DNA of 64,000 nucleotides. It comes from Microthyrium microscopicum. Lineage: Eukaryota. The translations under genes and the position numbers were made by a program. Numbering within the stretch: the first letter of the stretch is position 1; every line of letters starts with the position of its first letter. The stretch lies in NCBI GenBank assembly GCA_010405405.1, contig MU004241.1:620001-684000 (forward strand), written 5' to 3'. Of this stretch, positions 32,255 through 63,499 are shown piece by piece. The notes under the pieces are model-generated. The model ran no database searches and was not told the DNA's origin. It saw only the letters and a list, made by a program, of their open reading frames with translations.

Positions 32255-32477
32255 TCTGCGGTGGGAGAATGATAAAATAAATGGCATGCTCTCATCGAAT
32301 ATGACGTCCACCAACGCACCTTATAAGCAGCATACTCTCTAATTCCTGTCTGATAAAATAACTTTTTAGCATTTTCTATATAATCGATGGGATATGAAGG
32401 GTTCATCACTAGAATATAGCAGACGAGAGCCAAAGAAGCCAAAATGAGGGTACACCATTTATTTTGTCATTCGATTG
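32255..32477. mobile_element. degenerate ~212-bp MITE copy
   Basis: GATAAAATAAATGGCATGCTCTCATC ... GAGGGTACACCATTTATTTTGTC inverted arms; left tip eroded. Confidence 0.65.
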
Positions 32478-32791
32478 AGATCTCAGCCTTATTGACGAGG
32501 CGAGGCTGTAGAGGGTGACTAAGCCATGTTGTAGCTCAAGTGCTTGGAAAATATCGGGACTGATCCGGTTCCGATCACGGCTATGCCCGTACCAGACATG
32601 GCGAACCGTGCGTATCTTCAAGCTCAACAACTCTCAAACAATCCAACTGTTGCTCCTCTGTAAACATTTGCCTATTCCTACTTGCTGACGCTCTCTTCAT
32701 CGAGCATATCTAGACGCCTTCCCGCGATGAACCCTTAAGCGCACCTCCTACAGCTGCGCGGTCAGCTTCTCTCCCTCTCACAACTCTCAGC

Positions 32792-34618
32792 ATGGACGAA
32801 TCCTCGCATCGGACGAAACGATTATTAGCGGTCGCTGCTGCCACAGTAGTCAGTTTGGCTTGCGGTACAAACTATGCATATTCCGCCTGGGCTCCTCAGT
32901 TTGCCCAGAAGCTGCAACTGACAGCCACGGAAAGCAATCTCATTGTATGGTGCAAGTTCAATGCGGTATGGGGTGGGCTGATCGTGTATAGGGAACCGCT
33001 GGCAATGTTGGCATGTACGCTTCTGGAATACCTTTCGGTTACATGGTCGATACAAGAGGGCCAAGATTGAATACAGTCATCGGATCAGTTCTACTTGGGG
33101 TCGGATACTACCCATTGTATTGGGGTAAGAGGATCAATACTTCATGTCGCAAGCAGAATACTAAACTGTTGCAGCTTATGAGAATGGAAAGGGATCTATG
33201 GGGGTCCCGATGCTGTTCTTTTTCTCATTCTTGACTGGCGCTGGAAGCTGCTCGGCGTTTTCAGCTTCTATAAAAACAGGTTGGTTATTTAGACGTGCTT
33301 TGGCTCGACTAACGTGTGCAGCTGCGCTCAATTGGCCTCACCATAGAGGAACGGCTACTTCATTTCCTCTGGCTGCATTCGGTCTCAGCGCCGTATTCTA
33401 TACTACTATCTCTGGAATACTGTTCCCTAGCAGTGTGCAGTCGTACCTCTTACTACTGACCTTTGGCACGTTTTGCATGTGCTTCTTCCCGGTTTTCTTC
33501 ATTTCCGTTCCAGCTGAGCAGAAGTACACAGCAGTCTCAGCAGACGAATATAATGAATCGGAGAATAGAAGAGACTCGAATGTACTACATCGACCAAAAT
33601 CATGGAAAAGCGTAGCAAGCACAACAAGCGATCCAAATAAGCCAGGTAAGCATTAGTTTCATTCTAGTATTATGCATTGCGCACATACTAAACCTCACCG
33701 CAGCTGCCCATTCTGGACAGACTGGTGTCACGGCAAATGGAGATGCAAGTGAAATATCGTCATTGCTTTCAAGCGAATCTATACCTGGCGACATTGATCC
33801 TGTGGAAAACAGCCTTAAGAACTCTGTACATAGTAACTCACATCATGGACCAGATATTACCGGACTCGCGCTTTTACCGACGGTAGAATTCTGGCTTCTT
33901 TGGTCGATGTTGGGAATACTAACTGGCATTGGCCTTATGACTATCAACAACATTGGAAACGACGTAAGCAACCAACTTCAAACTTGTCATTACACCCCAG
34001 CTAATATACACGCAGTCAAATGCGCTTTGGCGTTACTACGCTCCCGATACAGACCCCGATTATATCCTACAACGTCAACTTATGCACGTCTCCATTATTT
34101 CTATCATGTCTTTCTGTGGTCGTCTGCTTAGCGGCATTGGCTCCGACTTTTTGGTCAAGAAACATCACCTGTCCCGCTTTTGGTGCCTCGTCATCTCATC
34201 CTCGATTTTTGCCGTTGCTCAGGTACTCGCTCTCAGTATCGTCGATCCCAATTACCTCTGGCTTCTGTCGAGCATTAGTGGGCTGGGATATGGCTTTCTC
34301 TTTGGCGTGTACCCAGCACTCATCGCTGATGCTTTTGGCGTTAGCGGACTGAGCATGAATTGGGGCTACATGACGATTGCGCCAGTCATATTTGGCAATA
34401 TCTTCAATCTATTGTACGGTGGAGTATTTGATTCGCATTCAATCAAAGGCGAAGATGGGAACTTGGTTTGCGAAGTTGGTCTTGACTGCTACAGGAACGC
34501 GTACGTGGTTACAGCAATCGGCAGCGTTCTAGCCATCGGCTTAAGTGTACTCACAGCATGGCGCGACGGTCGCAAGCTTCGACGGCTTCGTGATTCTCTC
34601 AACGATCGACTTGATTAG
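32792..34618 (+). CDS. MFS transporter, MCH1/nodulin-like family
   Basis: SLACGTNYAYSAWAPQFA, WPHHRGTATSFPLAAFGLSA, GIGLMTINNIGN, GRLLSGIGSD; multiple short introns. Confidence 0.9.
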
Positions 34619-34736
34619 ACATTGCGTGGCGCTCCGGCGCACGCTCCTTAGATATCCTTTTTATCATGACACATAGCGTTAATCGTACAAGACATTATGA
34701 CCTCTTCCACGTCTTTCTGTAGCCCGGTGTTGTTCG

Positions 34737-35282
34737 TCATACTCGTCTCACACCTTCCAACAACCTCTCCAACCGGCCCACCAACTCATCCTTTTCCGCC
34801 TCCGTCTCCTTCGCCTCAACATCCAACTCCCCCAACTCCGCCGTCAGCTCCTTAATCCTCCTCTCCTGACTAGCCTCACTATCACCCAACCCCGGTAACG
34901 ATGCCACTAATGCCTCAAGCTGTTGTTCCTTCAGCACAAGATCTTGCGCCAACACTGTTAATCGCGCATGGATGTGTGGATCTGGCTGTATCTTGACACC
35001 ATCGTTTTCGGGTGCGCCATCTGTCGCCGTGCTTCCTTGCGTGTTGCCCCCTTGTGTGTTGTTTGTGGATGCAACGAGTGTAGTTTGTGTAGAGCCGCCT
35101 GGGACGACGAGGGTGACTTGCGAAGCGGGTGTGTTGTCTGTTGCGGGGACGGTGCCGAATTGGTCTGTTTGCCCGGGAATGTGGGCGTAATGGTGGCGAG
35201 TGTCGATGTAGTGGATTGTTGCGTACATTTGGGTCATTAGTTGGTCGAGACAGTCTTGGATTTGGGTCAGGCGGTCGGCCAT
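34737..35282 (-). CDS. SRB7: Mediator subunit 21
   Basis: MADRLTQIQDCLDQL start; LAQDLVLKEQQLEALVASLPG..SEASQERRIKEL coiled coil. Confidence 0.92.
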   Translation of the reverse strand: MADRLTQIQDCLDQLMTQMYATIHYIDTRHHYAHIPGQTDQFGTVPATDNTPASQVTLVVPGGSTQTTLVASTNNTQGGNTQGSTATDGAPENDGVKIQPDPHIHARLTVLAQDLVLKEQQLEALVASLPGLGDSEASQERRIKELTAELGELDVEAKETEAEKDELVGRLERLLEGVRRV

Positions 35283-35537
35283 CTTGCGGTTGGTGTTTAA
35301 GTGGTGTAGGTGGGGAGAGATTTCGAATTGTTGAGGGATGGGGAGGTTGACGACGTTAGGCTTGACTGAAGGAGTGACTGGCGTTGGTAAAAATGAGAAG
35401 TGATGTTTGTTACAAAGAATTCTCAAATTATTGTTCATTGACAGACGTTCAAAAACATTTGAATGTTCAATGTCCAAAAGTTACTGCCCGAATCAACAAT
35501 GTGTTAGCCTCAGGCACGCCTTTTCTGTCCAACGCTG

Positions 35538-35748
35538 CATGTGGGCGACAAAATAAGTGACACGCTTCCATCAAGTTTGATGTCTGCCATCTGCTACGCT
35601 ATACATGTATGCTAGGGTCTATCATTTTCTTCTAATGTACTCAATCCCCCATCGAATGCGTTGGGATTTAAAGTAGCCTTTCTTGAAGAGGTGCGATGGG
35701 AGACATCATACTTGATGGGAGCGCGCCATTTATTTTGTCACCCGGTTG
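35538..35748. mobile_element. ~211-bp MITE copy
   Basis: GACAAAATAAGTGACACGCTTCCATCAAG ... CTTGATGGGAGCGCGCCATTTATTTTGTCACCCGGTTG. Confidence 0.8.
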
Positions 35749-36629
35749 ACGCGTTCAAATTCCAGATCAATCGAGACTTCATCCACATCTGTGAGCTCCT
35801 CGTTGTGTTCTTCTATTGTCATTGGTACTTTATCAATAATACAGTAACGTTTTTTATGGACTCCTCTCAAAGGTGGTGTATCCCCGAACGCATAACCTGT
35901 AGGATCTTGAACTCTTCCGCCGATAGTTGCTTCCGACAGCTTACGAACCGCCTGCTCCTCCTCTGCCGTCAAAGAAATAGACAAACCTCCCAGATTCTCT
36001 TGCAGCCGATGTAGTTTCGTTGTTCCAGGGATCGCAAAAACATCATCGCCTTGCGCCAACAACCACGCGAGACAACGGCATAGCAAAATAAATGGCGTAC
36101 CCTTATTAACTCTAATGGCTACTACCAGCGCTGCTACCTAAAAGATACTTTACTTCCTATCGTATCTAACACATACTCCTAATCCGAAAGCCTTTAAAAG
36201 TCAATAGAGTATATAGTAACAGAGCGTAGCGTCTAAGCGCTATTAGAGCTGATAGGAGTACGCCAATTATTCTGCCATGCCTTACCTAGGACCTTTCTGA
36301 TACCAAATTTGGTAGACAAGAAGATGTCTTCGCGCTTAGTTGGATTGGCCTTGAACCACTTGTTCAGGAGATCTCCCGAGTCGCCATGTTCGTCGGCTAA
36401 AGGTATTTGATTAGCAAGATGTGCAGCTAGAGAGGGCGAGGATCTTACCAGAGTCCCAGAATGTCTCGCCAGCCTTGTATACTTCGTCCAAATACGCAAG
36501 GCGTGTCTCATCTGAACCAGGTAGGCCGTAGTTGCCACTGAGGCTCATAAGTCCCAGGCCTAGACGTGGAACTTCTGGACCATTGCGGCCCAAAGGACGG
36601 GTTGGAAGAGGCTTGGTAACTTTTGACAT
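35730..36629 (-). pseudogene. aldo-keto reductase (YakC-like), internally deleted and MITE-disrupted
   Basis: The N-terminus (LPTRPLGRNGPEVPRLGLGLM..FWD..REDIFLSTKFG) is joined through a MITE directly to the C-terminal LAWLLAQGDDVFAIPGTT..LQENLG. The central barrel is missing. Confidence 0.88.
36073..36284. mobile_element. ~212-bp MITE inside AKR pseudogene
   Basis: CAACGGCATAGCAAAATAAATGGCG ... CGCCAATTATTCTGCCATGCC; colinear with 60504-60720. Flanks do not match. Confidence 0.88.
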
Positions 36630-36848
36630 GATTCGATATCTGGACAAGTGATATGAATGGGGTATTTGATGTGTTCGCTAGTTTTGTAGACCGTGGAAAC
36701 TGACAGATTTCATTCTTTTACGAATAATTATATCCGACTCGTTTCAAAAGTCTCGGACTTCTCGGACTTTGCGGTGATCTCGTATCCTTATACGTCGTAT
36801 ATATTTTTTTAATTCGTCCTGATGTCAATCTTCGCCGCCGTAAACTGC

Positions 36849-37060
36849 CAACCGGTGGAAAAAATAACTGGCATGCTCCCATCGATTTCGATAGCTCCCA
36901 CCTGACACGCTTTACTATCGAGTGCTTCATTTCCCATAAGGCGCGTTCATACTGGCACAGTTTATTGAACGCAATGGAAAATATAGCATCTTTGTTTAGT
37001 AGCGTCCATGGGAGCCATTGAAGTGGATGGGGCCACGCCAGTTATTTTGTCGACCGGTTG
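36849..37060. mobile_element. 212-bp MITE with ACTGC TSD
   Basis: CAACCGGTGGAAAAAATAACTGGC ... GCCAGTTATTTTGTCGACCGGTTG; ACTGC at 36844-36848 and 37061-37065. Confidence 0.9.
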
Positions 37061-37652
37061 ACTGCATCATGTTCCCTAAGTACAAACAACTCCGCCGGAT
37101 CGCCGTTACTTCCACCGGTATTTCCACCAACCCAAGCAACCATTATGATGGGCAATCCTATTCTTCAAAATGGCCTATTTTGCTGAAAAGGCACTTCAGC
37201 CGTCCGATACGTCTGGATGGCTGAATGTGTGTGCCAGCGAAAGTCTGCCTGCACCCGAAGCGCCCGAACGATTGACAGGAAAAGAAGGTTTTCAGAAAGA
37301 TATGTATCGTGAATCCAGACCGTTCCAACAGATCCAATATATTGCCGAGTTTCGACAACATTTGAAGGCCATAAGTACCAGTAGGTATGTTTGATGCGAT
37401 AGCCATGTTGAGAGATCCTCCCAATTCGAATGGCGTATAATTTGAACCCCCCTTGTAACGTCGGCCAAATTGGCCGTGAGCCAGCTGCCAGACAGCTTCA
37501 AGTTCCAGGCTTCTTTATGTAGTTACAGCAACGTTTTGAGGCTTATATGTTACTCGGAGCTAAATACAGATAAGTTGATATTGAAGCTAGTATCCTTCTG
37601 TTAGATCACCCTACAATTGGTCATCGGACACGATTCCTAGCCGCCTGCCACA

Positions 37653-39600
37653 ATGGATAATGACACGACTCCATCAACGTCGACATACAACCCCTCCGGC
37701 AGTTCTTCTCCCGCAGCCGCTATTCAGTTTTGTTCGCGGTGTGATAAACCTTTCACAAACGGTCAGAATTGCAAGAACATGTGCTTAGCATTTCGATGGC
37801 TGATACTAGATGTAGAAACCTCGCATCGTCGTCATGTTCGTTACTGTGGGAGTCGTACCCGGAACCGACCACGATCGTGCCGTGCCTGCAACGTTGCAAA
37901 GATCAAATGTAACTTTGAGGCACCTTGTATGAGATGCGCCAAGAAGAATATAGACTGCATCTATGATGGTCCGATGGCTGGAGCCAAACGACCATCGTCT
38001 AAATTGGCAAAAGAGGCTCCAGAAGCTCACGCAACGCCCTTGAATGTGGACGATTTTACCATGGCATACGATGATTCTGCCTATGATGGCAATCTTGAAT
38101 TGACCGACTCTTTTCGCGAATCCGCTATCAATAGCAACAACAATCTTTCCCTGATGGAGTTCAGCACATCAATGCTTGAAATTGACGAGTCCGTGATTCT
38201 GGACGATTACTTCCATCTTGAAGATCAGACCTCAGCTCAGCTTATGAGGTTACCAGAGGTTTCGTTGCTATCAAACGGAAAGAATGAGGAGCATGTTTAC
38301 CGACTGCCTTCTTGGTGTTCATGGACGCAGAGGGGTGCTACGCTTACGGCAATGACCGAGACTGCCATAGATCTGTAAGATTCCCCGTGACAAATCACAT
38401 TTCTTGACGACACTTGTTGGAACGACAACGATTATATCTCCCATCCTACTCGATGGCTACCATAGAATGCGTTCTTGACCGAGTGCTATGGAGCGCGTCG
38501 AATGCGGCAGGTCTTTTATGGTTTCACACCGACAAGACTATTTGGTCTTTTCGTTGTGTTAGCTCCAATCGTAATCTTATACTGACAGATTCCAGGGAAT
38601 CAAATCATCGGGCACTTATTGAGCCTCATCGAACATCCGCTCTGAGCTACGCTGATCTTGTGATACAAGCGCTGAGGTCCTTCCCCACGATGATGCTGAG
38701 AAAAGAGACATTTCCATGGTTTATCCATCGCCATGCCAACCTTCTAACAGACTCTGGTAGAGATCTACCCCAAGCACTTTCAATTTGCATGAGTATTTCA
38801 CAGATGTTTGTTCTACGTACTCCAGAAACAAGACACTATCTCTGGGAAACCATCAAAAGAGAAAACCAACGGTTGTTCAATCAGGTATGCTACCAGAGCT
38901 CATAATTTAGACCTCTAGCTAACAATGAACAGAAAGACCAGATGCATGCTTTTGAAATAAGCGCTTCTTTACAAGCTCAAGTAATTTATCTGGTTATGAG
39001 TCTCATCGATAGCTCCCCTGAGAGCGAAGAAGCGTGCTTGGAATTAATGGAAAGTTTGAACGTAAGTCTGCAAATATTCATTATCGTGATCTGCATGTTG
39101 ACATCTCAAGTCGCTTTATATATCAGCGAAGAAGATGCTTGCAGGACCCATGACTCCAAGTGAGCTCTCTAGCCGAAGCATGAGTTGGAAAGGTTGGATT
39201 CTCGCAGAGTCTCAGAGAAGGTAGGCTCTATACCAAAGGATTACACTGACAAGATTACTGACTGATAGCCATCCATAGAATGACTAACTTATGGTTTCTT
39301 ATTGGTACCGTCATCTGTATCAAGACAGGCATGATGTGCGATGATTCCCCCTCCTATAAGCCTATACCACTCCCTGCTCTCAAATCTCTATGGGAGGCCT
39401 CCTCGGAATCAGCCTGGGGATTTGAATATGAAGCGACTCGCAATATTCAAACAAGCGGTCTAGAGACCTTCGGTGATCTCATGGAAGCCCAAAAATATCG
39501 GTTTCTACCATCAAACGCTCAAAGACTGGACAAATGGAACGCAGGGGTCGATAATCTAGGAGTTTTATTGACTTTGGCCTCAACAATAATACGAAGCTAA
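37653..39600 (+). CDS. Zn(II)2Cys6 transcription factor with N-terminal C2H2-like finger
   Basis: CSRCDKPF..HRRHVRYC then SCRACNVAKIKCNFEAPCMRCAKKNIDC; FPWFIH, WILAESQRR, LPALKSLWEA. Several introns, including 38375-38595. Confidence 0.88.
38375..38595 (+). mobile_element. introner-like element (221-nt phase-2 intron of the TF gene)
   Basis: GTAAGA..ACTGAC..TTCCAG; removal restores the frame (IDL-ESNHR). Homologous end to end with the intron at 53547-53761. Confidence 0.8.
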
Positions 39601-39636
39601 TTAAACATCCGGACAATACCCAAGTGCTGAAGCCCG

Positions 39637-39849
39637 CAATTGCATAGCGAAATAAATGGCGTACTCCCATCAACTCTAATGGCACCTAGACGCGACGCTC
39701 TATTATTAAGTGCGTTCTTTGCTACAAAGGGCGTTCAGATTGGGAATATTCATTAGATTCGATGGGAATTAGAACATCTTCTGATTAGCAGCGCTGGTGG
39801 TAGCCATCAGAGTCCATGAGAGTACGCCATTTATTTTGCCATGCCGTTG
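39637..39849. mobile_element. 213-bp MITE with GCCCG TSD
   Basis: CAATTGCATAGCGAAATAAATGGCG ... CGCCATTTATTTTGCCATGCCGTTG; GCCCG at 39632-39636 and 39850-39854. Confidence 0.9.
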
Positions 39850-39879
39850 GCCCGCTACCTGTCTTTTACGGCGACTCAA

Positions 39880-40623
39880 CTACCAAGGAATGACTCCATC
39901 TCTGTCTGTAAAAGTTGCGGTAGCTGTACCTTTCCCAGCAGTTGCCAATTGGACAATCCGAATAGCCCCCACATCTGTCGTTGTACCATAAGGGTGATAG
40001 GCGGTTGCTTTTGTCTTCACCAAGCCAGGACAAGCGACATTCACCAAAACGCCAGTGTCGTTGAGGATTCTGGCATAGTTGAGAGCCAGCATGTTGAGAG
40101 CCGCTTTGCTACAGTCATATGCCTTGTAATCGGTGTTGTAATACAAGGTTTCCTTATTGAGCGTTTCCTGAATAGAGCCCATGCGCGAGGAGACAAAGAT
40201 CAAGCGTGCAAACTCGGATTTGCGTAGGAGAGGTAGGCATGCTTCAGTCAAGCATGCCGTGCCGGTTACATTGGTGTTCAAAGTCTGGCTGAAGAGCTCT
40301 CGTGGAGTCAGGTCTTTGTATTGCTCATGACTATCCAAAAGAATCGCGGCATTATTGATCAAGACGTCCAAAACGCCAAACTCTTTTTCGATCCAGCTTA
40401 CTGCTTTGGTGATGGAATCGTCTGATGTGATGTCGAGTTGAACTGAGGAGGCTGCAAATCCATCTGCGACTAGCTTGTCAGCTTCCCCTTTTCCGGAAGC
40501 TTCGTTGCGAGATGCAATGATGACATGGTAGCCATGGTCCTTGGCGAGCTGTTGGGCTACTGCGAGGCCGATGCCAGTGTTGGAGCCTGAGATGAGAGCG
40601 ACGGTTTTCTTGGAAGGTGACAT
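39880..40623 (-). CDS. short-chain dehydrogenase/reductase (carbonyl-reductase-like)
   Basis: SGSNTGIG, LDVLINNA, VSSRMGS, YDCSK catalytic motif; start MSPSKK at 40623. Confidence 0.92.
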   Translation of the reverse strand: MSPSKKTVALISGSNTGIGLAVAQQLAKDHGYHVIIASRNEASGKGEADKLVADGFAASSVQLDITSDDSITKAVSWIEKEFGVLDVLINNAAILLDSHEQYKDLTPRELFSQTLNTNVTGTACLTEACLPLLRKSEFARLIFVSSRMGSIQETLNKETLYYNTDYKAYDCSKAALNMLALNYARILNDTGVLVNVACPGLVKTKATAYHPYGTTTDVGAIRIVQLATAGKGTATATFTDRDGVIPW

Positions 40624-41263
40624 GTTTGGGATTGGAATTGATGGAGAGCGAAGATACTTTTTATGAGCGAGATGTAAGTCAGGTGCGAGTTGAGTTGAAC
40701 AATAGCAGAAAAGGAGAGAGATTCCCACATATAAATACAAGAACTACCACGGCCAATTTGGTCATCTTATGAATAATCGAAATAGGCCAAATTGGTCACA
40801 TCACAAAAGCGAAGCAGAAATCGGCGAATTTTGCCGAAATCCTCTAGGCCATCTTAATGTTGAAAATGATGACCGAAACCAATTGTGCTCTGAAAAGAGA
40901 GGCACCTAGGAGATCGATAATAAATATGATATGCAAATATATATTGACCTAGCATCAAAACATGGTCGAATAGTCGGCACTGTGAGATCTTGATGGACCA
41001 TGAACAAGTGCGAAACCCTCTAACCACGATAATCGCTCATTAACACATCTAACGACCACATACTATGTGTAATTTCTGTCAAGCATGTTCATATTGACTC
41101 ATTCCATCGAATTTGATGGGCAAGATGAAATGCTTTATTGTTCAAAGGTGATGGCAGCCATCGCTGTTCATGGGAATGCGCCGTAATTGGCCAATAGTTG
41201 TCAAAAGGCTTGCTTTAGTTCAGCCTTATCTCAGCCTTGCCCATTCACAACACCAGCTCAAAT

Positions 41264-44923: not shown

Positions 44924-45166
44924 TAGCTCTCTTTGGTTTGTGTTCCCTCGCCTTCAAGTTTGGATGCAGTTTGCTAACAGTGTGCAGCCTTTTGGCTTAG
45001 ATCAAGTGTAGTATCTGTTCTTACGACCTTAACAGGTCGTACACCTCTACGTGAGGAAGTACAACTGTTAAGCCACTTTTTGCAACCAGCTTGCGCACTC
45101 CCTGGGCTTGCCCATAGTCGCAGGCACTGTGTCCTCTGTATTGCACTGCCTCAGAGTGACGCGAAA
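44924..45166 (+). ncRNA. U2: U2 spliceosomal snRNA containing a 52-nt spliceosomal intron (44936-44987)
   Basis: Spliced AGCTCTCTTTG|CCTTTTGGCTTAGATCAAGTGTAGTATCTGTTCTT matches the fungal U2 5' end. Stems IIa/IIb/IIc, Sm-like ACTTTTTG and stem IV loop TATTGCAC present. Mature size ~190 nt; ends approximate. Confidence 0.93.
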
Positions 45167-46167
45167 TCCTTTTTTTCATTGCAGTCTTTGCCTAGAGCAG
45201 AGATGTGAGGAAGAAATACTTCAACCTTTTATTGAATCGTGGAGGGCGATATTGCTTGATACTGAGTTTTGGTGGTGAATTAGGGACGATGAATTTTGGT
45301 GGTGAAAACTCAAAATCTGTGCGTTTAGCGGGCGCTGTAACAGCGGTCAGGTCTTTCGTTGAACATTCAAGCAGTATCTTGGTACTATCGAACAGTGGAT
45401 AGATGTCTAGTTGCTATATTCTACACTTTCATTGCCATATAGATTGCTCATGAGCGACATGCTGTTGGACAAAGTAAACATTGAATGACAGCAGCCTTTG
45501 GTGATGGGAGCAAAAGTCTTTCGTCAAAACTCTTCGATGGAACATTGAAGTGCCATAGTTCCCATCGCCTTATTCACACTAAATCAGCGTTTTAGATCAT
45601 AGACATCACAGGTGACGGAAAGCGATCAGCTTTTTTGTCCATTTTGGTCAGCAATCTTGAGTGCGAGGGTTGGCTGAAATTTTGGTCCAGCGGTGGTGGG
45701 TACAGCAAATCTACGACGGCATTGCCAGGCGGCATCTGGACTGGCTAGTAGAGCAGATACATCTCATAGCATGATACTTATAGTCTCATAGACTCAAGAT
45801 AGATACGCAGCAAAGCCATCATCCAGAGTCGAACGCAACGCACAGTGATCGCACTCATTAAGGCCCCTCCATCAATATTCAGCACCAGCGCGGAGTAACA
45901 AGCCAGATAGGTAAACATGCAAAATGGCTCTCAGCCACGACTGTAGCTTTATACATCTATAGATTGTGATTTCAAGTATCTATTTGCAATATAAAGTCGC
46001 TCTTCAACAAGCCCACAGCCCTTCGCTATTCGCCAGCTAGGCTCACCTCGGTACAGGCAAAAAATGGATTCATCAACACCAGCAATAGCTCACATGCCAA
46101 TCAGCCGCAGATATCTAGCATCTCCCATCTAACCAGTATCATATCATAATATTCTTATCACTACATA

Positions 46168-50861: not shown

Positions 50862-52651
50862 AATACTACATGGAAAGTTGGACTCCTCGAAATCTCCTGG
50901 CTGAATCTGACGGGTGAAAGCGGCAAAACTTTGGAAAATGTAAAAGCTTGGAGCTCAACAGGTTGAATCTGACTCAAGACCTCTACATTCAAAAAAGCTT
51001 TCAAGAGATCTGGGCATCGAGATATAAACAGTGTAGGCGACCAGTTTGCTCAATCATAGAATTTGAGCGCGAATAGTCAACTTGAAGTGGCGGCCGCACC
51101 GAACAGGAAGCTGAATCGCCCGAGAACAGTTGAAGGACGACTCGGAATTGATGATGTATGACGTCATCATTGACTGGAGAGTTTTTTGCTACATCATGTC
51201 TATCGGTCATGAACCCCAAATCAGATGGTTTCATGTGCTTTTATGTATTTTACTTTTCTTTGGATTGGAAGGGCTCTGCTTCTTTTCCAGAGTACGTGCT
51301 TACCATAGTGAAGTGCGGTGCTGAATGGAGAATTGTACGCAGATCCTTCAGCCTTGTTCTCAGCCTTATTGGGAAAAAGTACAGCTTTACTAGTATGGTC
51401 TTTGCTAGCAGGCTCATATCATGTTATAAGAAAAATTTCAAGACCAGTGCGCACAGGAATCATCAAGGCCATTTGTGAGGACGCTCCCATCGAGTACGAT
51501 GTCTGCCATAACACGTCTTATAAAGAGTGATCGTTTTGTTTCTCATCACTGTACTCGATGGCATCATTCCCTTAAAGGCTCTGCTGATTGTGACACAGAA
51601 AAGGAGAAATAGCAGCAAAACGCAGTAGTAACATTATTAATCACGTTTTGAATTGGCAAAGATTTGTTATTTGGACAGCCTAGCGCTGTTATTAAGATAA
51701 ACTACTAATTGGATCTAGTAGATCGCTGATATAGTGAGATCGAAGCATCACTTAGAGGCCTCGAACTTTCGTCCAGTGGTAACGCTGCTATTGAAGGTAT
51801 ATCTTGGTGATCTGGCACTTTACATAGCGTCAATTGGCTACGAATTGCCTCTACATCAGCAGCCTCTTTCAAAGCTTTACCTGATAAAAATTAGACATCA
51901 GTTCCAACACCATCCAGGCAATGGCACTTACTAGCCCGTACTTCCCTTTCGCGGCAGACTCGTCTTTGAAAGCCACTGTATGAATATTCCTCACCGCTTT
52001 CGAGCCGTAAGAAGCCATGAACTGTAGTCCCACAGAGTGGCTAGAAAGTGTTAGTTACAGACTACAGTAAACGCACGAAAATATCATGGTGAATGCTTCG
52101 ATGAAGAACCATCACACTTCATGGTTGCCACCAATTGCGATGGGCGCCACGATGTGTTTTTGGCTTTATCATATATCCTCAAAAAATGTAATTTGACGCG
52201 GGGGTTTCTTACATATCGAGCGTATAGTCTGGCAGGCCGCAGAGTGATTGCGCTGGTAAATATTAGCCATTGGCATACTGATACATTGAAAGATATCAAT
52301 TGCCATGGGAGCCATCGCCTGCTATGAAAGCCATCGATTAGGATAGGGACTTCTTGCCAGGTGGGAGCATACGAAACATCAAAGGATACGCGACTTACTG
52401 TACAAAGGCGATCGGTCGAGACAGATGCCTTCCAATGCGATGGGAGCCATCTAGTCAGTTGGCAATCACGAGTTCACAAAAGAAACAAGACTTGTTTGTA
52501 TGCAAGAAAGTCCATCGTATGGACGAAATTGACGTATCACATATAAAGTCTTCAACGCGCTCAATGCTCAATGCTGCAAAATCATACTCTATGAACTTTA
52601 AAATAACCGATACTAAAGGCAACCCGGAACATCGAACAGAACACGCCTTGA

Positions 52652-54114
52652 TTAGGTTTCCTTGGCCCATTGCTTCCCGCTCCAGAGATCGCCAGTAGTC
52701 CAAAGCCAGTAATCACGGCCTTTGATCATCCAGACCAACCAGCTGGGAATCTGCCATCCCATTGCCGCACCAACGCCTTTGTTTCTTCCAATTGGTACTA
52801 GCTGGGTCTCGCGAGTATCTGCCTTGAAAAGCTTCTCATCTCCAACTGCTTTCATTCCAGCGGCAAGAAGTAGATCACGCTTGATGTTCGAACCAAGAAT
52901 AGGAACTGCATTCAGAATTTGATGAATCGCTGGACGCGCGAATGACGATGCATCACCAATCGCGTAGACTCGCTCCCCAACCTTTTCAACTCTCAGAGCT
53001 GCATTGACTTTCACTCGACCATCCGCTTCAAGCAGCGATTTGTCCACAAAATTAGTATTTGGCGTTGTACCCGTCGCAGGAATGTACAGGTCTGCCTCCA
53101 GTGTCTTGCCATCCGCGAGTATCGCCTTGGCTCGAGTTGCAACATTCTCTTTGGTCCCGGCACCAGATGGCTCCACGGCATTGATTCGGGTGTTCTTGAT
53201 GACATTAACTCCAACACAGGCAAGAAACACCTCTGCTTTTCTTGCAATTGATGGTCGAAGGCCTGGTAAAATTTCAGAACCGGCAGTGACGAGTGTTATG
53301 GCAACCTTCGGGCTCTCAAGTGTAGAGTTGAACCAGCCAGCGCTACCATTGAGATACTCGCCTAATTCTCCCGCGGTTTCGACGCCACTTGCGCCACCTC
53401 CAGATATCACGATGCTCTTGGCTGATGAGAGTTCTGAGCGAAACGCGGCCCAGCTGCTTCGAAGGTATTGTTCGTCCTTATTCAAGCCAAGTAGTGGAGA
53501 TGGTGTTGAAGCGCCAGTGGCAATGACCAAGGCGTAGAAGCCAATCCTGGAATTTGTCAGTCTAAGATTATGATCGAAGCTAACACAACCAAAGAAAACA
53601 ATTAGTCTTTTCGTGGCAAAATCATGAATATCCTATTACATTCAGTTTGATCTATATTAAGAACGCACTCTATGGTAGCCATCGAGTACGATGGGAGATA
53701 TGATTGTTTTCGTTTCAACAGATGTCGTCAAGAAATGTGATTTGGCATGGGGAATTCCTACCTCTCGGTCTCAATCCCAACGCTCACAGAAACAGTCCGG
53801 TTGACATGATCGAGTTCTGTTGCAGTGCCTTGAACAAATCGAAAGTTTTGACTTGGATATTGCTCAAACTGTACAGGAATGTTGACGAAAAGTTTCTCTT
53901 GAGGAAGCAAGTCGTCCGAGATCAGCGCGCGAGGGCAGGCTGGTCGACACAGGGCTTGAGAAGCTGTACTGACGATTATGACTTGGTATGTCTCATTGTC
54001 TGTCAGAACTGGTATGGTGTGCTTGAGGGTATAGTGAGCGATGGATATTCCACAATAAGAACCACCAAGGATGACAATGTTCTTTTGGGGCGTCGAGGTC
54101 TTTGTTTGGTCCAT
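52652..54114 (-). CDS. AMID/AIF-like FAD-dependent pyridine nucleotide-disulfide oxidoreductase
   Basis: IVILGGSYCG, LVIATGA, GGGASGVETAGE, VYAIGD; a single 215-nt intron at 53547-53761. Confidence 0.9.
53547..53761 (-). mobile_element. introner-like element (215-nt phase-2 intron of the AMID-like gene)
   Basis: Minus strand GTAGGA..ACTGAC..TTCCAG; removal gives ETER-IGFYALVIATG. Homologous to 38375-38595. Confidence 0.8.
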
Positions 54115-60503: not shown

Positions 60504-60720
60504 TAACGGCATAGCAGAATCAATGGCTTACTCCCATCAACTCTAATAGCTACTCTACCACCGGCGCTACTAACTCAAAGTGCTTTAATTCCTATTGTAT
60601 CTAATTACTATTCTTAATTCGAACGCCCTTTATGGGAGATAAAGTACTTAATAATAGAGCGTAGTGTCTAGGTGCCATTAGAGTCGATGGGAGTACGCCA
60701 TTTATTTTGCTATGCCGTTA
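60504..60720. mobile_element. 217-bp MITE flanked by GCATCT direct repeats
   Basis: TAACGGCATAGCAGAATCAATGG ... CCATTTATTTTGCTATGCCGTTA; GCATCT at 60498-60503 and 60721-60726. Confidence 0.9.
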
Positions 60721-61038
60721 GCATCTCAACTAGACTCACAACTACTAAATCAGATTCTTGCTTCTATTATTCAGACAAACAATGCTGCGGGCAAATGAGA
60801 CATTAGTAATATTTAACACGATAACTTTTAGAAAGACTATTAACTCTATAAGAGTAAAATTAAAGAATAACGACATGATATAACTCTTTATGCATATATC
60901 TATGGCCTTATCTTAAACCTATTTCCAACCTCAAAGAGAAACCTGTGAGGCTTTGACGCTTGTCTAAAATGAGTTAGCGACGGGAGGGACGGGACGGGAC
61001 GCTGGCGCTAGTAAAAAACGACAATATTTTGAGCAGAG

Positions 61039-61252
61039 CCCACAAAGCACAAAATAAATGGAATTCCCCCATCGACGGCGATGGCTCCCGCTCACTTCAT
61101 ACTCCGTAACGAGACTGTACTTACTTTTCCATCTTAATCGATTACCTGAGAGGAGATCCATCCACTCGATGTAAACAAAAGACGCGTAGAAAGCGTGTTA
61201 TATGGTAGCCATGGCACTCGATGGGGGCGTGCCATTTAATATTGATTTGTTA
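61039..61252. mobile_element. degenerate MITE copy
   Basis: ACAAAATAAATGGAATTCCCCCATCGAC ... CTCGATGGGGGCGTGCCATTTA. Confidence 0.7.
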
Positions 61253-62200
61253 AGGAGAAATCGTGAACCTTGCTGATCTCTCTGTCCCCTGAATTTCTGT
61301 GCTTTTTGACGACATAATCTGATGAAACACTACGGATACAAAGCAAGACCACCGCAGAAGCAAGTATAATCTGATATACCTCTTGGATAATCCTCTTGAG
61401 ATTATGAATCCTCTAAGGTCCTGTTTTCCGTCTATTTCAAGGCCGTATTTGGTTAATTCATATGTGCGCTACAGGAGTTTGGTTCTTTAGGTGTGGCTGT
61501 ACTGCGCCAATGGCTTTTAGTCCTTGTAAATGCCCATATTTGGGTGTGAAAATAATTTACATGAGCCAGGAATGTGACCCAAATGGATATCCAAGGGCCA
61601 GAACCTTTTAGGATGTGTCCTTGCTATCTATTTGCCAGAAGCTAGCTACCAGTTGATAGAATGAATGGCCCGCTCTCATCAGCCGCCCTGGCTCCTGAAC
61701 GCTAGGCACATTCTATCATCATGTCTTCTATCTATTGAAACAACCTTTCATTTTCGAACAGCTTATCGAATGCGATGGGCAATACAGCATCTTTTCCTTT
61801 CGCACATTGGTGGGAGTTATCGCCGTCGATAGATATGTGCCATTTGTTTTGCCAGTCCGTTGGCCAGATTTGAGCGAAACTTCTGATCGTAGTTATTTCA
61901 CTTTGACTCTGGACTCAGAAAGTGAATTCATGATCAAAATTCAGTTCATGCAGAACAGTTCACTAGCTATGAAACCGTAGTCGTAGTCATCAGAGAGAAT
62001 TTCGTTATTGACATGCCACAGACTGACATCAAAGTCACCCTTTCCCTCAGAAGCTGAGAACAATGCATGTCTCTCAGCGCACGTTATAAAAGCACCGCAT
62101 GTGCCAGAATCATCTATGCTCCCCCAATTTCCTCAACCCCTACAAATCTGCGTCTTCATATACCATCAGGTTCCAAGAAGTATCCTCTTCTATATCCAAG

Positions 62201-62452
62201 ATGTGCAATTGGAAGAAGATCAATTATCAAATCTGTGGACATGAAGAGACTGCTCTTACCAGTATGTGTTCGGAGGAGGTGCGAATGGCTCGACACCAGC
62301 GCGGTGCATGTCCACCACCTATTATTATTTTCCCGGTGGAGCATTTGAATCGGCCTGCAGAAAATGATACTACAAGCATGTGTTCCCTCTGCGAGCATAG
62401 GGCCCAAGTGAACAAAGCACTTTACATAGCCAGGACTGGTATGTGGCAGTAG
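62201..62452 (+). CDS. small Cys-rich hypothetical protein (MC..CGH..CxxC type), 83 aa
   Basis: MCNWKKINYQICGHEE..MCSLCE..KALYIARTGMWQ; paralog immediately downstream. Confidence 0.75.
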   Translation: MCNWKKINYQICGHEETALTSMCSEEVRMARHQRGACPPPIIIFPVEHLNRPAENDTTSMCSLCEHRAQVNKALYIARTGMWQ

Positions 62453-62681
62453 TCTACCAGTATACTATTTGACTATTCTTGTAGAGGTAGCTAGGCAATG
62501 TCAAAAGCACTCAGTAACATGATAGTCAGCATTTCAATATAAATATCCTAAGCCTGGGCTGTATCCCTTCTTCCGTTCTTTCTTCCTTGCTTCCTTCTTC
62601 TCTGCCAAATACTTTCATATCAGAATCTTCCTCAGTACTAAAGACTGAAGCTCTTACTCTCCCAACAAAACAAGCTGCAAA

Positions 62682-62927
62682 ATGTGTGATTGGAAGAAGG
62701 TCAGCTACATTTGTCAACATGAAGAAATCGTCCTGGCAGAAACTTGTCCTTTGGATCTTCGATTAGCACGAAGTCAGCCAGCTAGTTGTCCACCACCAGT
62801 TATCAGCCCTTCTAGACGTCGCTCTCTACCTGTAGATTATGTCAGCGTCATAATGTGTCATAAATGCGAGAAATTCGCCAAATTACATAAAGCACTTTAT
62901 CTGGCTAGGACCGGTCTCTGGCAGTAA
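62682..62927 (+). CDS. small Cys-rich hypothetical protein, tandem paralog, 81 aa
   Basis: MCDWKKVSYICQHEE..MCHKCE..KALYLARTGLWQ. Confidence 0.78.
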   Translation: MCDWKKVSYICQHEEIVLAETCPLDLRLARSQPASCPPPVISPSRRRSLPVDYVSVIMCHKCEKFAKLHKALYLARTGLWQ

Positions 62928-63286
62928 GCAGTCAATTGTAGAAAGTAGCGGATGGGAGCCATATATGGTGATGAGGGTACGTCAAATATTGTGTCTAATA
63001 ACTTAGTTGATACTATAGATGATTTCCAATGTCATTGATGAGACTAAAATGTCAAAGTCCTCAGTAATGTCTGGATGGGACATCTAGTGTCAATAGCCGG
63101 GCTACAATTATTCCTCGTTTCGCTCATAATCCCTCTTTTGATTTCCTCCCTCACCATTAAGCTTACTCGGGCAAAACCACTTTACTTCAAAATGTGTGAG
63201 GCTATGCTCTATTGCTAGGCTTGCGTTCACGGGAAACGAAGCAGAAATCGCATTTAATTGTCCGATCTAAAATTTCGGTGGACCTC

Positions 63287-63499
63287 CAACCGATGGACAA
63301 AATAACTGGCGTTCTCCCATCAGCGTCGATGGCTCCCACGAACGTTGTTAATTCAAACGTGCTATATTTCCCATCGCATTCGATGAATAATCGAAGTTTG
63401 AACGCGCTCTATGGCATATAAAGCACTCGATAGCAAATCGTCTTGTATGGGAGCCATCGCACTCGTTGGAAGCGCGCCATTTATTTTGTCGACCCCTTG
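63287..63499. mobile_element. 213-bp MITE with ACCTC TSD
   Basis: CAACCGATGGACAAAATAACTGGCG ... CGCCATTTATTTTGTCGACCCCTTG; ACCTC at 63282-63286 and 63500-63504. Confidence 0.9.

Follow-up and report, generated by a model that had tools for sequence, protein, structure and literature searches.

The window analyzed here is a stretch of 64,000 nucleotides (64 kb) from the Dothideomycete Microthyrium microscopicum (contig MU004241.1, positions 620,001 to 684,000), to which all copy counts refer, comparisons otherwise being made with protein databases and the literature. It contains two long spliceosomal introns, i1 and i2, lying in a transcription factor gene and an oxidoreductase gene, together with two further intron-like stretches (i3 and i4) and a resident family of 213-bp miniature inverted-repeat transposable elements (MITEs). 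The two introns are homologous to each other over their full length, and a short hairpin in their core resembles a motif of the MITE arms, which suggests that a MITE-derived fragment may have become part of an intron family that was copied as a whole. Introns in the window carry GTAAG donors, CTRAC-type branch sites and YAG acceptors. The introns, their modules and the intron-like stretches are as follows:

38375-38595, + strand: i1, 221-nt spliceosomal intron, phase 2, of the C2H2/Zn2Cys6-type transcription factor gene; full family copy
38375-38437, + strand: 5' module of i1, intron-specific, about 64 nt, holding the donor
38438-38506, + strand: MITE-like core of i1, matched by the MITE hidden Markov model (HMM); hairpin at about 38436-38465 firm, 38466-38512 a suggestive extension
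38508-38595, + strand: 3' module of i1, about 88 nt, with branch site and acceptor
53547-53761, - strand: i2, 215-nt intron, phase 2, sole intron of the AIF/AMID-like FAD oxidoreductase gene; second full copy
53660-53697, - strand: MITE-like hairpin core of i2, matched by the MITE HMM
52041-52212, - strand: i3, partial diverged copy, GT..AG bounded, in a stretch without a supported gene
52253-52398, - strand: i4, GT..AG-bounded intron-like stretch with the core motif alone in common with the intron family

In i1 the signals consist of a GTAAG donor, an ACTGAC branch site twelve bases ahead of the acceptor and a CAG acceptor, and excision fuses ...TAIDL with ESNHRALIEP..., keeping the reading frame. 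The exon 5' of i1 encodes a fungal Zn(2)-Cys(6) domain (Zn_clus, E 4.9e-8), and two fungal transcription factor homologues, P0124 and P0125, are colinear over the junction the two exon translations being separated by no more than a few columns. The public protein of this gene (P0121, 251 aa; gene region 37650-39600, + strand) begins with MMLRK at 38690, 3' of i1, and looks 5'-truncated, since the homologues of other fungi also cover the upstream Zn(2)-Cys(6) exon. Intron i1 lies outside the annotated intron set and is therefore invisible to annotation-based introner screens. Excision of i2 yields exactly the public 415-aa protein P0001, with six homologues aligning gap-free at the junction and the Pyr_redox_2 match resuming in exon 2 at profile position 101. 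The three annotated introns of the transcription factor gene, a small sample, measure 48, 49 and 58 nt, so that i1 and i2, with 215–221 nt, are longer by a factor of about four.

Pairwise alignment of i1 and i2 gave 170 identical bases out of 213 aligned (80%), running from the first G to the last G, with unrelated exon flanks on both sides. The pair thus shows the highly similar introns at non-homologous sites in unrelated genes that mark introner-like elements (ILEs), with an 80% identity that falls short of “near-identical”, and it has the splice signals of such elements, namely a GTAAG or GTAGG donor, an ACTGAC branch site and a CAG acceptor. By module, the identity was 86% over the first 64 columns, 92% (37/40) in the hairpin, 54% in the middle and 78% over the last 83 columns, with 30 transitions and 13 transversions overall. 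The differences between the middle of i2 (53620-53668, - strand) and the corresponding 38466-38512 of i1 were mostly C-to-T or G-to-A changes at CpG-rich positions; there are hints here of deamination or of decay of the repeat-induced point mutation (RIP) type in one of the copies. A scan with Rfam found no family in or around i1, so that an intron-borne snoRNA is not the cause of the similarity between i1 and i2.

The MITE family was delineated by iterated profile searches, giving nine full copies of 206–217 bp and three fragments, which together occupy 2319 bases (3.6%) of the window. The copies, clustered at 32260-41201 and 60504-63499 and adjoining gene ends, are listed here without strand:

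32260-32477: full copy, the most diverged
35538-35748: full copy, from the MITE profile
36073-36285: full copy, from the MITE profile
36849-37060: full copy about 600 bp upstream of the transcription factor open reading frame (ORF); flanking duplication ACTGC; fold z -7.9
39637-39849: full copy beginning 37 bp past the transcription factor stop; flanking duplication GCCCG(C)
41019-41201: fragment; MITE HMM E 8.5e-15
51479-51583: fragment, arm and part of the interior; MITE HMM E 2.2e-5
60504-60720: full copy; flanking duplication (A)GCATCT
61039-61253: full copy with degenerate ends; one arm carries the reverse complement of CCCCCATCGAGTGCCATGGCTACCATA
61646-61862: full copy, from the MITE profile
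62896-62997: fragment, one arm and end; MITE HMM E 1.5e-5
63287-63499: full copy of 213 bp, the best pairwise match of i1; ends CAACCGATGG...CCCCTTG; flanking duplication ACCTC; fold z -4.7

The family is short, non-coding and multi-copy, with terminal inverted repeats and target-site duplications, as expected of MITEs. Copies start with CAAC(C/G)G...GACAAAATAAATGGCG and have the reverse complement at the other end, the first 30 nt agreeing with the reverse complement of the last 30 nt at 22–27 of 30 positions in the four copies tested, and reverse-strand self-matches reach E 1e-29. Exact flanking repeats of 5–7 bp were found at four of the nine full copies, the other five having degenerate ends or flanks. 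As single strands, the two copies that were folded form long hairpins (z -4.7 and -7.9), and none of 200 shuffles folded as well. Copy-to-copy identity averaged 58% (45–81%, 36 pairs), and the family is therefore old. Each MITE contains three versions of a motif made of CCCATC, about six bases and GATGG, one in each arm and one in the centre. CCATC-N6-GATGG, allowing up to one mismatch, occurred at 23 sites of the window where 0.46 were expected: 15 in MITEs, 2 in i1 and i2, 5 in 52041-52470 and 1 elsewhere. No autonomous partner and no second MITE subfamily was visible in the 64-kb window.

The original prediction had claimed that the core of i1 is homologous to this family, and the strings on which it drew were present as described, both in i1, where CTCCCATCCTACTCGATGGCTACCATAGAATGCG is found from 38438 on, and as reverse complement in the MITE at 63287-63499 and in an arm of the copy at 61039. 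The claim was then examined with a MITE HMM of 213 nodes built from the nine full copies with intron sequence excluded. This model matched i1 at 38438-38506 with 11.2 bits (E 0.0048) and i2 at 53660-53697 with 9.7 bits (E 0.014). In the remaining real sequence, about 120 kb with both strands counted, no score outside the MITEs, i1/i2 and 52041-52470 exceeded 2.0 bits; an earlier model with flanks still in had given E 0.011 and 0.02 for i1 and i2, respectively. The suggested comparison with shuffled sequence, made at window level with the MITE HMM, came out in favour of the similarity, as none of 3000 dinucleotide shuffles reached the observed score either for i1 (maximum 5.6 bits) or for i2 (maximum 8.2 bits). 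In the reciprocal search, the intron was split into a 5' module profile (64 columns), a core profile (70 columns) and a 3' module profile, each run at a cut-off of E<=5. Of the 24 matches of the core profile, 16 fell in MITEs, 4 in i1/i2 and 4 in 52041-52470, which leaves unrelated DNA with none. The 5' module profile matched i1, i2 and i3 (52212-52163) alone, with no match in MITEs at E<=5, and the 3' module profile matched i1, i2, one self match and three unrelated places, again with none in MITEs. The 34-nt hairpin had a mean identity to 18 MITE arms of 0.59 for i1 and 0.64 for i2, as compared with 0.58 arm-to-arm between copies and 0.29 (sd 0.085, maximum 0.49) for 300 random composition-matched 34-mers against the arms.

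Beyond the hairpin, the similarity was assessed in pairwise comparisons with real background windows. Gene-bearing DNA in the window has a G+C content of about 45–50%, and AT-rich blocks of about 20–25% G+C lie at 1-22000, ~42-44 kb and ~58-60 kb; these blocks have the appearance of RIP-degraded repeat isochores. Naive background tests of similarity are inflated because of them. The first, unfiltered background windows took in the AT-rich blocks, and the test was repeated with composition-matched windows; both sets are given. The hairpin alone (38436-38465) was equalled by 1, 7 and 3 of 1342 composition-matched windows under three scoring schemes. The extension at 38466-38512 (CGAGTGCT..GAGCGCGT..CGAATGCG) was equalled or beaten by 54, 2 and 300 of 1240 composition-matched windows, and 222, 24 and 550 of 1277 unfiltered windows scored as well. 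Aligned to the HMM, i1 covers 30 columns more than i2, and these contribute 1.5 bits. For whole i1 against the best MITE copy, 4, 7 and 14 of 257 unfiltered windows and 1 of 300 shuffles were as good, and with composition-matched windows the counts were 1, 5 and 0 of 261 for i1 and 8, 4 and 4 of 267 for i2. The similarity claimed for the core was thus robust for the hairpin of 30–38 nt, on the strength of the HMM, the shuffles and the reciprocal profile, whereas the extension, originally aligned “with deletions”, is suggestive only. The closeness in length that had also been pointed out is real (introns of 215–221 nt, MITEs of 206–217 bp) but carries no evidential weight: the alignable part of the intron does not exceed about 70 nt, and intron ends and MITE ends do not match up.

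The borders and folding of the introns were not those of MITEs. The first 30 nt agreed with the reverse complement of the last 30 nt at 8, 12, 13 and 8 of 30 positions in i1 to i4, respectively. The original prediction had also proposed a search for remnants of target-site duplications at the intron-exon junctions; exact repeats flanking the four elements did not exceed 2–3 bp, even with ends shifted by up to 4 bases. Hence i1–i4 have neither the terminal inverted repeats nor the border duplications of MITE-type introners. Alignment of the MITE HMM to the introns ends at the boundary between arm motif and terminal repeat. Intron RNA folds were ordinary, with z-scores of -1.31, -1.63 and -1.36 and 20, 9 and 17 of 200 shuffles at least as stable, and the unusually stable secondary structure of ILEs was not found. 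Alignment by eye of the 25 nt before the hairpin, for example in i3, made a complete MITE with its ends nested in the intron tempting; this candidate was rejected, no profile match covering the MITE ends. Just within both intron ends there is a 6-bp direct repeat, GATTCC twice in i1 (38379-38384 and 38588-38593) and AATTCC twice in i2 (53751-53756 and 53549-53554, - strand), whose first base covaries between the introns and which may be due to chance. A target duplication was rejected as its explanation, the sequence being absent from the spliced exons.

Further intron-like copies were found at 52041-52470. The 5' 109 nt of i3 are homologous to the intron family from GTAAG onward (intron HMM E 2.6e-11), and its 3' part differs. 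After its hairpin, i3 retains a block, TTCATCGAA, that to the eye resembles the MITE centre, which is a lead and not a result. In i4, the intron HMM matched over its positions 67–148 (E 7.7e-4) and the core profile with E 0.0019, the core motif being followed by the MITE-arm-like GCGATGGCTCCCA; the MITE HMM gave 3.8 bits (E 0.89) at 52302-52329, a score reached by 7 of 3000 shuffles. Both stretches are on the strand of the neighbouring gene and could be part of an unannotated transcript. The small ORF around them showed no Pfam family and no homologue among proteins of 33–107 aa, and for this reason i3 and i4 are taken as intron-like copies rather than proven introns. Just upstream of i4, 52399-52470 (- strand) resembles a collapsed MITE arm and centre (ATGGCTCCCATCGCATTGGAAGG) and holds the ATG of the small ORF model. 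A degenerate full MITE at 52230-52490 was considered and rejected, as a single arm-like piece scores (3.7 bits).

With moderate confidence, and judging from sequence comparison, we favour the explanation that these introns form a family with a MITE-derived fragment inside and that copying involved the introns as wholes. Under this explanation, i1, i2 and the partial i3 would make up a single family of long spliceosomal introns, of the kind that is known from Dothideomycete fungi as introner-like or low-copy duplicated introns, a full copy being composed of a 5' module with the donor, a core of about 35–70 nt and a 3' module with branch site and acceptor. The core, most firmly its hairpin (CTCCCATC, six bases, GATGGCTACCAT), would descend from the arm motif of the local 213-bp MITE or a close relative, the founding intron or sequence having presumably gained part of such a MITE that did not include the terminal inverted repeats. 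What was subsequently copied into other genes would be the entire intron from GT to AG and not the MITE, and the seamless borders would fit the reverse-splicing or retrohoming idea proposed for fungal ILEs. The direct evidence consists of the end-to-end homology of the introns, in-frame splicing consistent with homologues, a profile similarity confined to the core, and the lack of MITE-type ends and duplications. From this we infer the direction from MITE to intron, the capture event and the mechanism of copying, the direction because the MITE copies are more diverged than the introns (58% against 80% identity between i1 and i2) and the motif has a triple structural role in the MITE. Of the two scenarios offered in the original prediction, the copying as a unit of an intron carrying a MITE fragment fits the data, i1 and i2 being homologous over their full length with unrelated flanks and only the core MITE-like. 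The other, a MITE-to-intron transition, finds no footing, given 5' and 3' modules without MITE match, ends without inverted repeats, no duplication above 3 bp and fold z-scores of -1.3 to -1.6, and a transposon turning into an intron is not shown.

Several observations weigh against this explanation. The firm match between core and MITE is short, a hairpin of 30–38 nt, and palindromic, and two families could have such a palindrome in common because of its function and without shared ancestry. Whether the extension past the hairpin stands out is a matter of the gap model, since it does so only when long deletions are cheap, and the whole-intron pairwise scores reach only the top 0–5% of real background windows. 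The intron motif fits the MITE centre (identity 0.59–0.60) about as well as the arms (0.59–0.64), with acceptable alignments in both orientations, so that register and orientation of the longer alignment are ambiguous. As i1 and i2 are copies of one another, they represent one event, not two independent ones. The partial copy i3 has no MITE-HMM match at all, and the identity of its hairpin to the MITE arms (0.46) is inside the range of the random controls. MITE fragments at independent positions in otherwise unrelated introns had been named as one of the findings that would overturn the proposed homology, and i4, with the core alone in otherwise unrelated sequence, goes part of the way in that direction. 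The direction of transfer is a presumed one, and the splicing of i1 and i2 is predicted from annotation and homology. Finally, published screens give no introners for M. microscopicum, the supplement tables of two genome surveys listing the species with zero introner families (PMC9860276, PMC12130899); this listing fits an old, diverged or low-copy family and the position of i1 outside the annotation.

Some of these observations, namely a firm match of only about 30 nt that is palindromic, an extension that is not robust, an i3 without score against the MITE profile and window-level E values that are modest (0.005 and 0.014) for one independent event, are also what would be expected if there were no common descent at all and the short palindromic motif had come to lie in the two families by chance or convergence, say as a binding site or as a hairpin under selection in each. 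We regard this as unlikely, though it is the alternative that best survives the comparison. The observed score was not reached in 3000 shuffles, nothing above 2.0 bits was seen in the rest of the real sequence on both strands, and the reciprocal search returned 16 MITE matches and none in unrelated DNA. The hairpin is as similar to the arms as the arms are to each other, a value that none of the 300 random controls reached. The non-palindromic flanks of the motif are similar as well (GGCT.CCAT and TAT..CTCCC), which a simple stem requirement would not fix, and the motif is nearly absent outside MITEs and intron or intron-like stretches (1 of 23 sites).

Alternatively, the two families may have taken the motif independently from a third element, such as the subterminal repeats of the autonomous transposon mobilizing the MITE or another MITE subfamily, with fragments arriving separately in several non-coding stretches, among them i4, 52409-52462 and the founder of the introns. 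The core-like or arm-like pieces that i4 and the stretch just upstream of it carry in otherwise unrelated sequence would be accounted for in this way, as would the end-less MITE fragments scattered in the window (41019-41201, 51479-51583 and 62896-62997) and the nearly equal likeness of the intron motif to arm and centre motifs. This appears distinctly improbable. The window shows neither an autonomous element nor a second subfamily, and the core of i4 is matched better by the intron-core profile (E 0.0019) than by the MITE profile (E 0.89), which agrees better with a degenerate copy of the intron family than with a separate capture. Least probable, and in our opinion very unlikely, is a true MITE-type introner, that is, an intron family that is itself a non-autonomous DNA transposon mobilized by the MITE transposase via the shared hairpin, bringing its own splice signals so that insertion makes an intron: the position of the MITE motif in the best-conserved part of the introns (37/40 identical), the location of i3 and i4 in a stretch without a supported gene, which fits spread at the DNA level like that of the Zymoseptoria intergenic homologues (PMC5647799), and the covarying 6-bp direct repeat speak for it, but there are no inverted repeats at the intron ends (8–13 of 30) and no target-site duplications (at most 3 bp at 4/4), the homology has its limits exactly at the GT and the AG and the exons join seamlessly, the 5' and 3' modules lack MITE similarity, the fold is unlike that of MITEs and the internal repeat is no target duplication, being absent from the spliced exons.

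Fungal introner-like elements and low-copy duplicated introns were reportedly described by van der Burgt et al. in 2012. The intron family with a captured MITE fragment that we favour resembles such introns in several respects. As in Collemare et al. 2013 (PMC3609843), homologous introns with canonical splice signals are found in unrelated Dothideomycete genes, i1 and i2 are longer than regular introns and have seamless borders without duplications or inverted ends, and i3 is shortened with a degenerate 3' part, as described for decaying elements. Unlike ILEs, i1 and i2 show 80% identity rather than near-identity, their folding is not unusually stable (z -1.3 to -1.6) and their core matches a MITE family of the same genome. 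Fungal ILEs in the sense of van der Burgt and Collemare have tens to hundreds of copies, with a profile search more than doubling the cluster, while the 64-kb window contains two full copies, one partial copy and one with the core only. The term “introner” used in the original prediction is not established for a family with two full and one partial copy in the window, in a species listed with no introner. Ascomycete ILEs are thought to spread by reverse splicing (PMC3609843, PMC9860276), and in a large survey ascomycete introners are an outlier without inverted ends or target duplications (PMC9860276).

Other systems were compared in the same way. In the introners of Micromonas and Aureococcus (Huff et al. 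2016, as given in the review PMC11282704), the intron is the transposon, with inverted ends, a 3-nt duplication and one splice site derived from the duplicated target. What the present family shares with them is a sequence link between introns and a miniature inverted-repeat DNA transposon. In i1 and i2, by contrast, the resemblance to the MITE is confined to the interior, and the ends have neither inverted repeats nor duplications next to them. Repetitive elements in regular introns have been noted in Rhytidhysteron, Fusarium graminearum and Sclerotinia and were set aside as non-ILEs by Collemare et al. (PMC3609843). There too, transposon-derived sequence within introns makes those of different genes look similar, whereas i1 and i2 are similar along their entire length, and what derives from a repeat is a fragment that lacks the MITE ends. 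In Zymoseptoria, intergenic intron homologues with at least 80% identity and at least 80% of the length, some with duplications, were likened to miniature transposons by Wu et al. 2017 (PMC5647799). As intron-like copies outside supported genes, i3 and i4 are comparable, but what connects the present family with a defined MITE, one that has ends and duplications, is a short motif in the interior. In Hypoxylaceae, symmetrical sister (stw)introns have terminal inverted repeats of their own of 45–55 nt (Fekete et al. 2021, PMC8469720). These are likewise proliferated fungal introns with transposon-like features and seamless integration without duplications, but i1 and i2 lack terminal inverted repeats.

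If the link between such an intron family and a classical MITE resident in its genome is real, part of the element would have an origin that is concrete and testable, and i1 and i2 are in this respect a hint on the sequence source of copied introns, not a transposon-to-intron change caught in the act. By extension, the structured cores of ascomycete ILEs may be recruited pieces of resident MITEs, a generalization that is at present rather doubtful. If it were true, a DNA transposon would supply sequence, perhaps a hairpin that aids proliferation, and the copying of the intron would proceed by another, seamless route; the present intron family would then be the first case with donor and derivative side by side in one genome. 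In the literature covered, to which most subscription journals do not belong, there was no paper linking a fungal introner-like family to a resident MITE by sequence, and a literal search of paper texts for four short intron and MITE strings did not find them.

A degenerate 20-nt pattern of the intron 5' module was matched at 21 loci in metagenomes, all of which were rejected as chance, with similarity limited to 20–37 nt around the pattern and no MITE match. The window additionally contains a full-length U2 spliceosomal small nuclear RNA gene at 44974-45170 (+ strand; Rfam RF00004, 117.6 bits, model positions 1–192 of 192).

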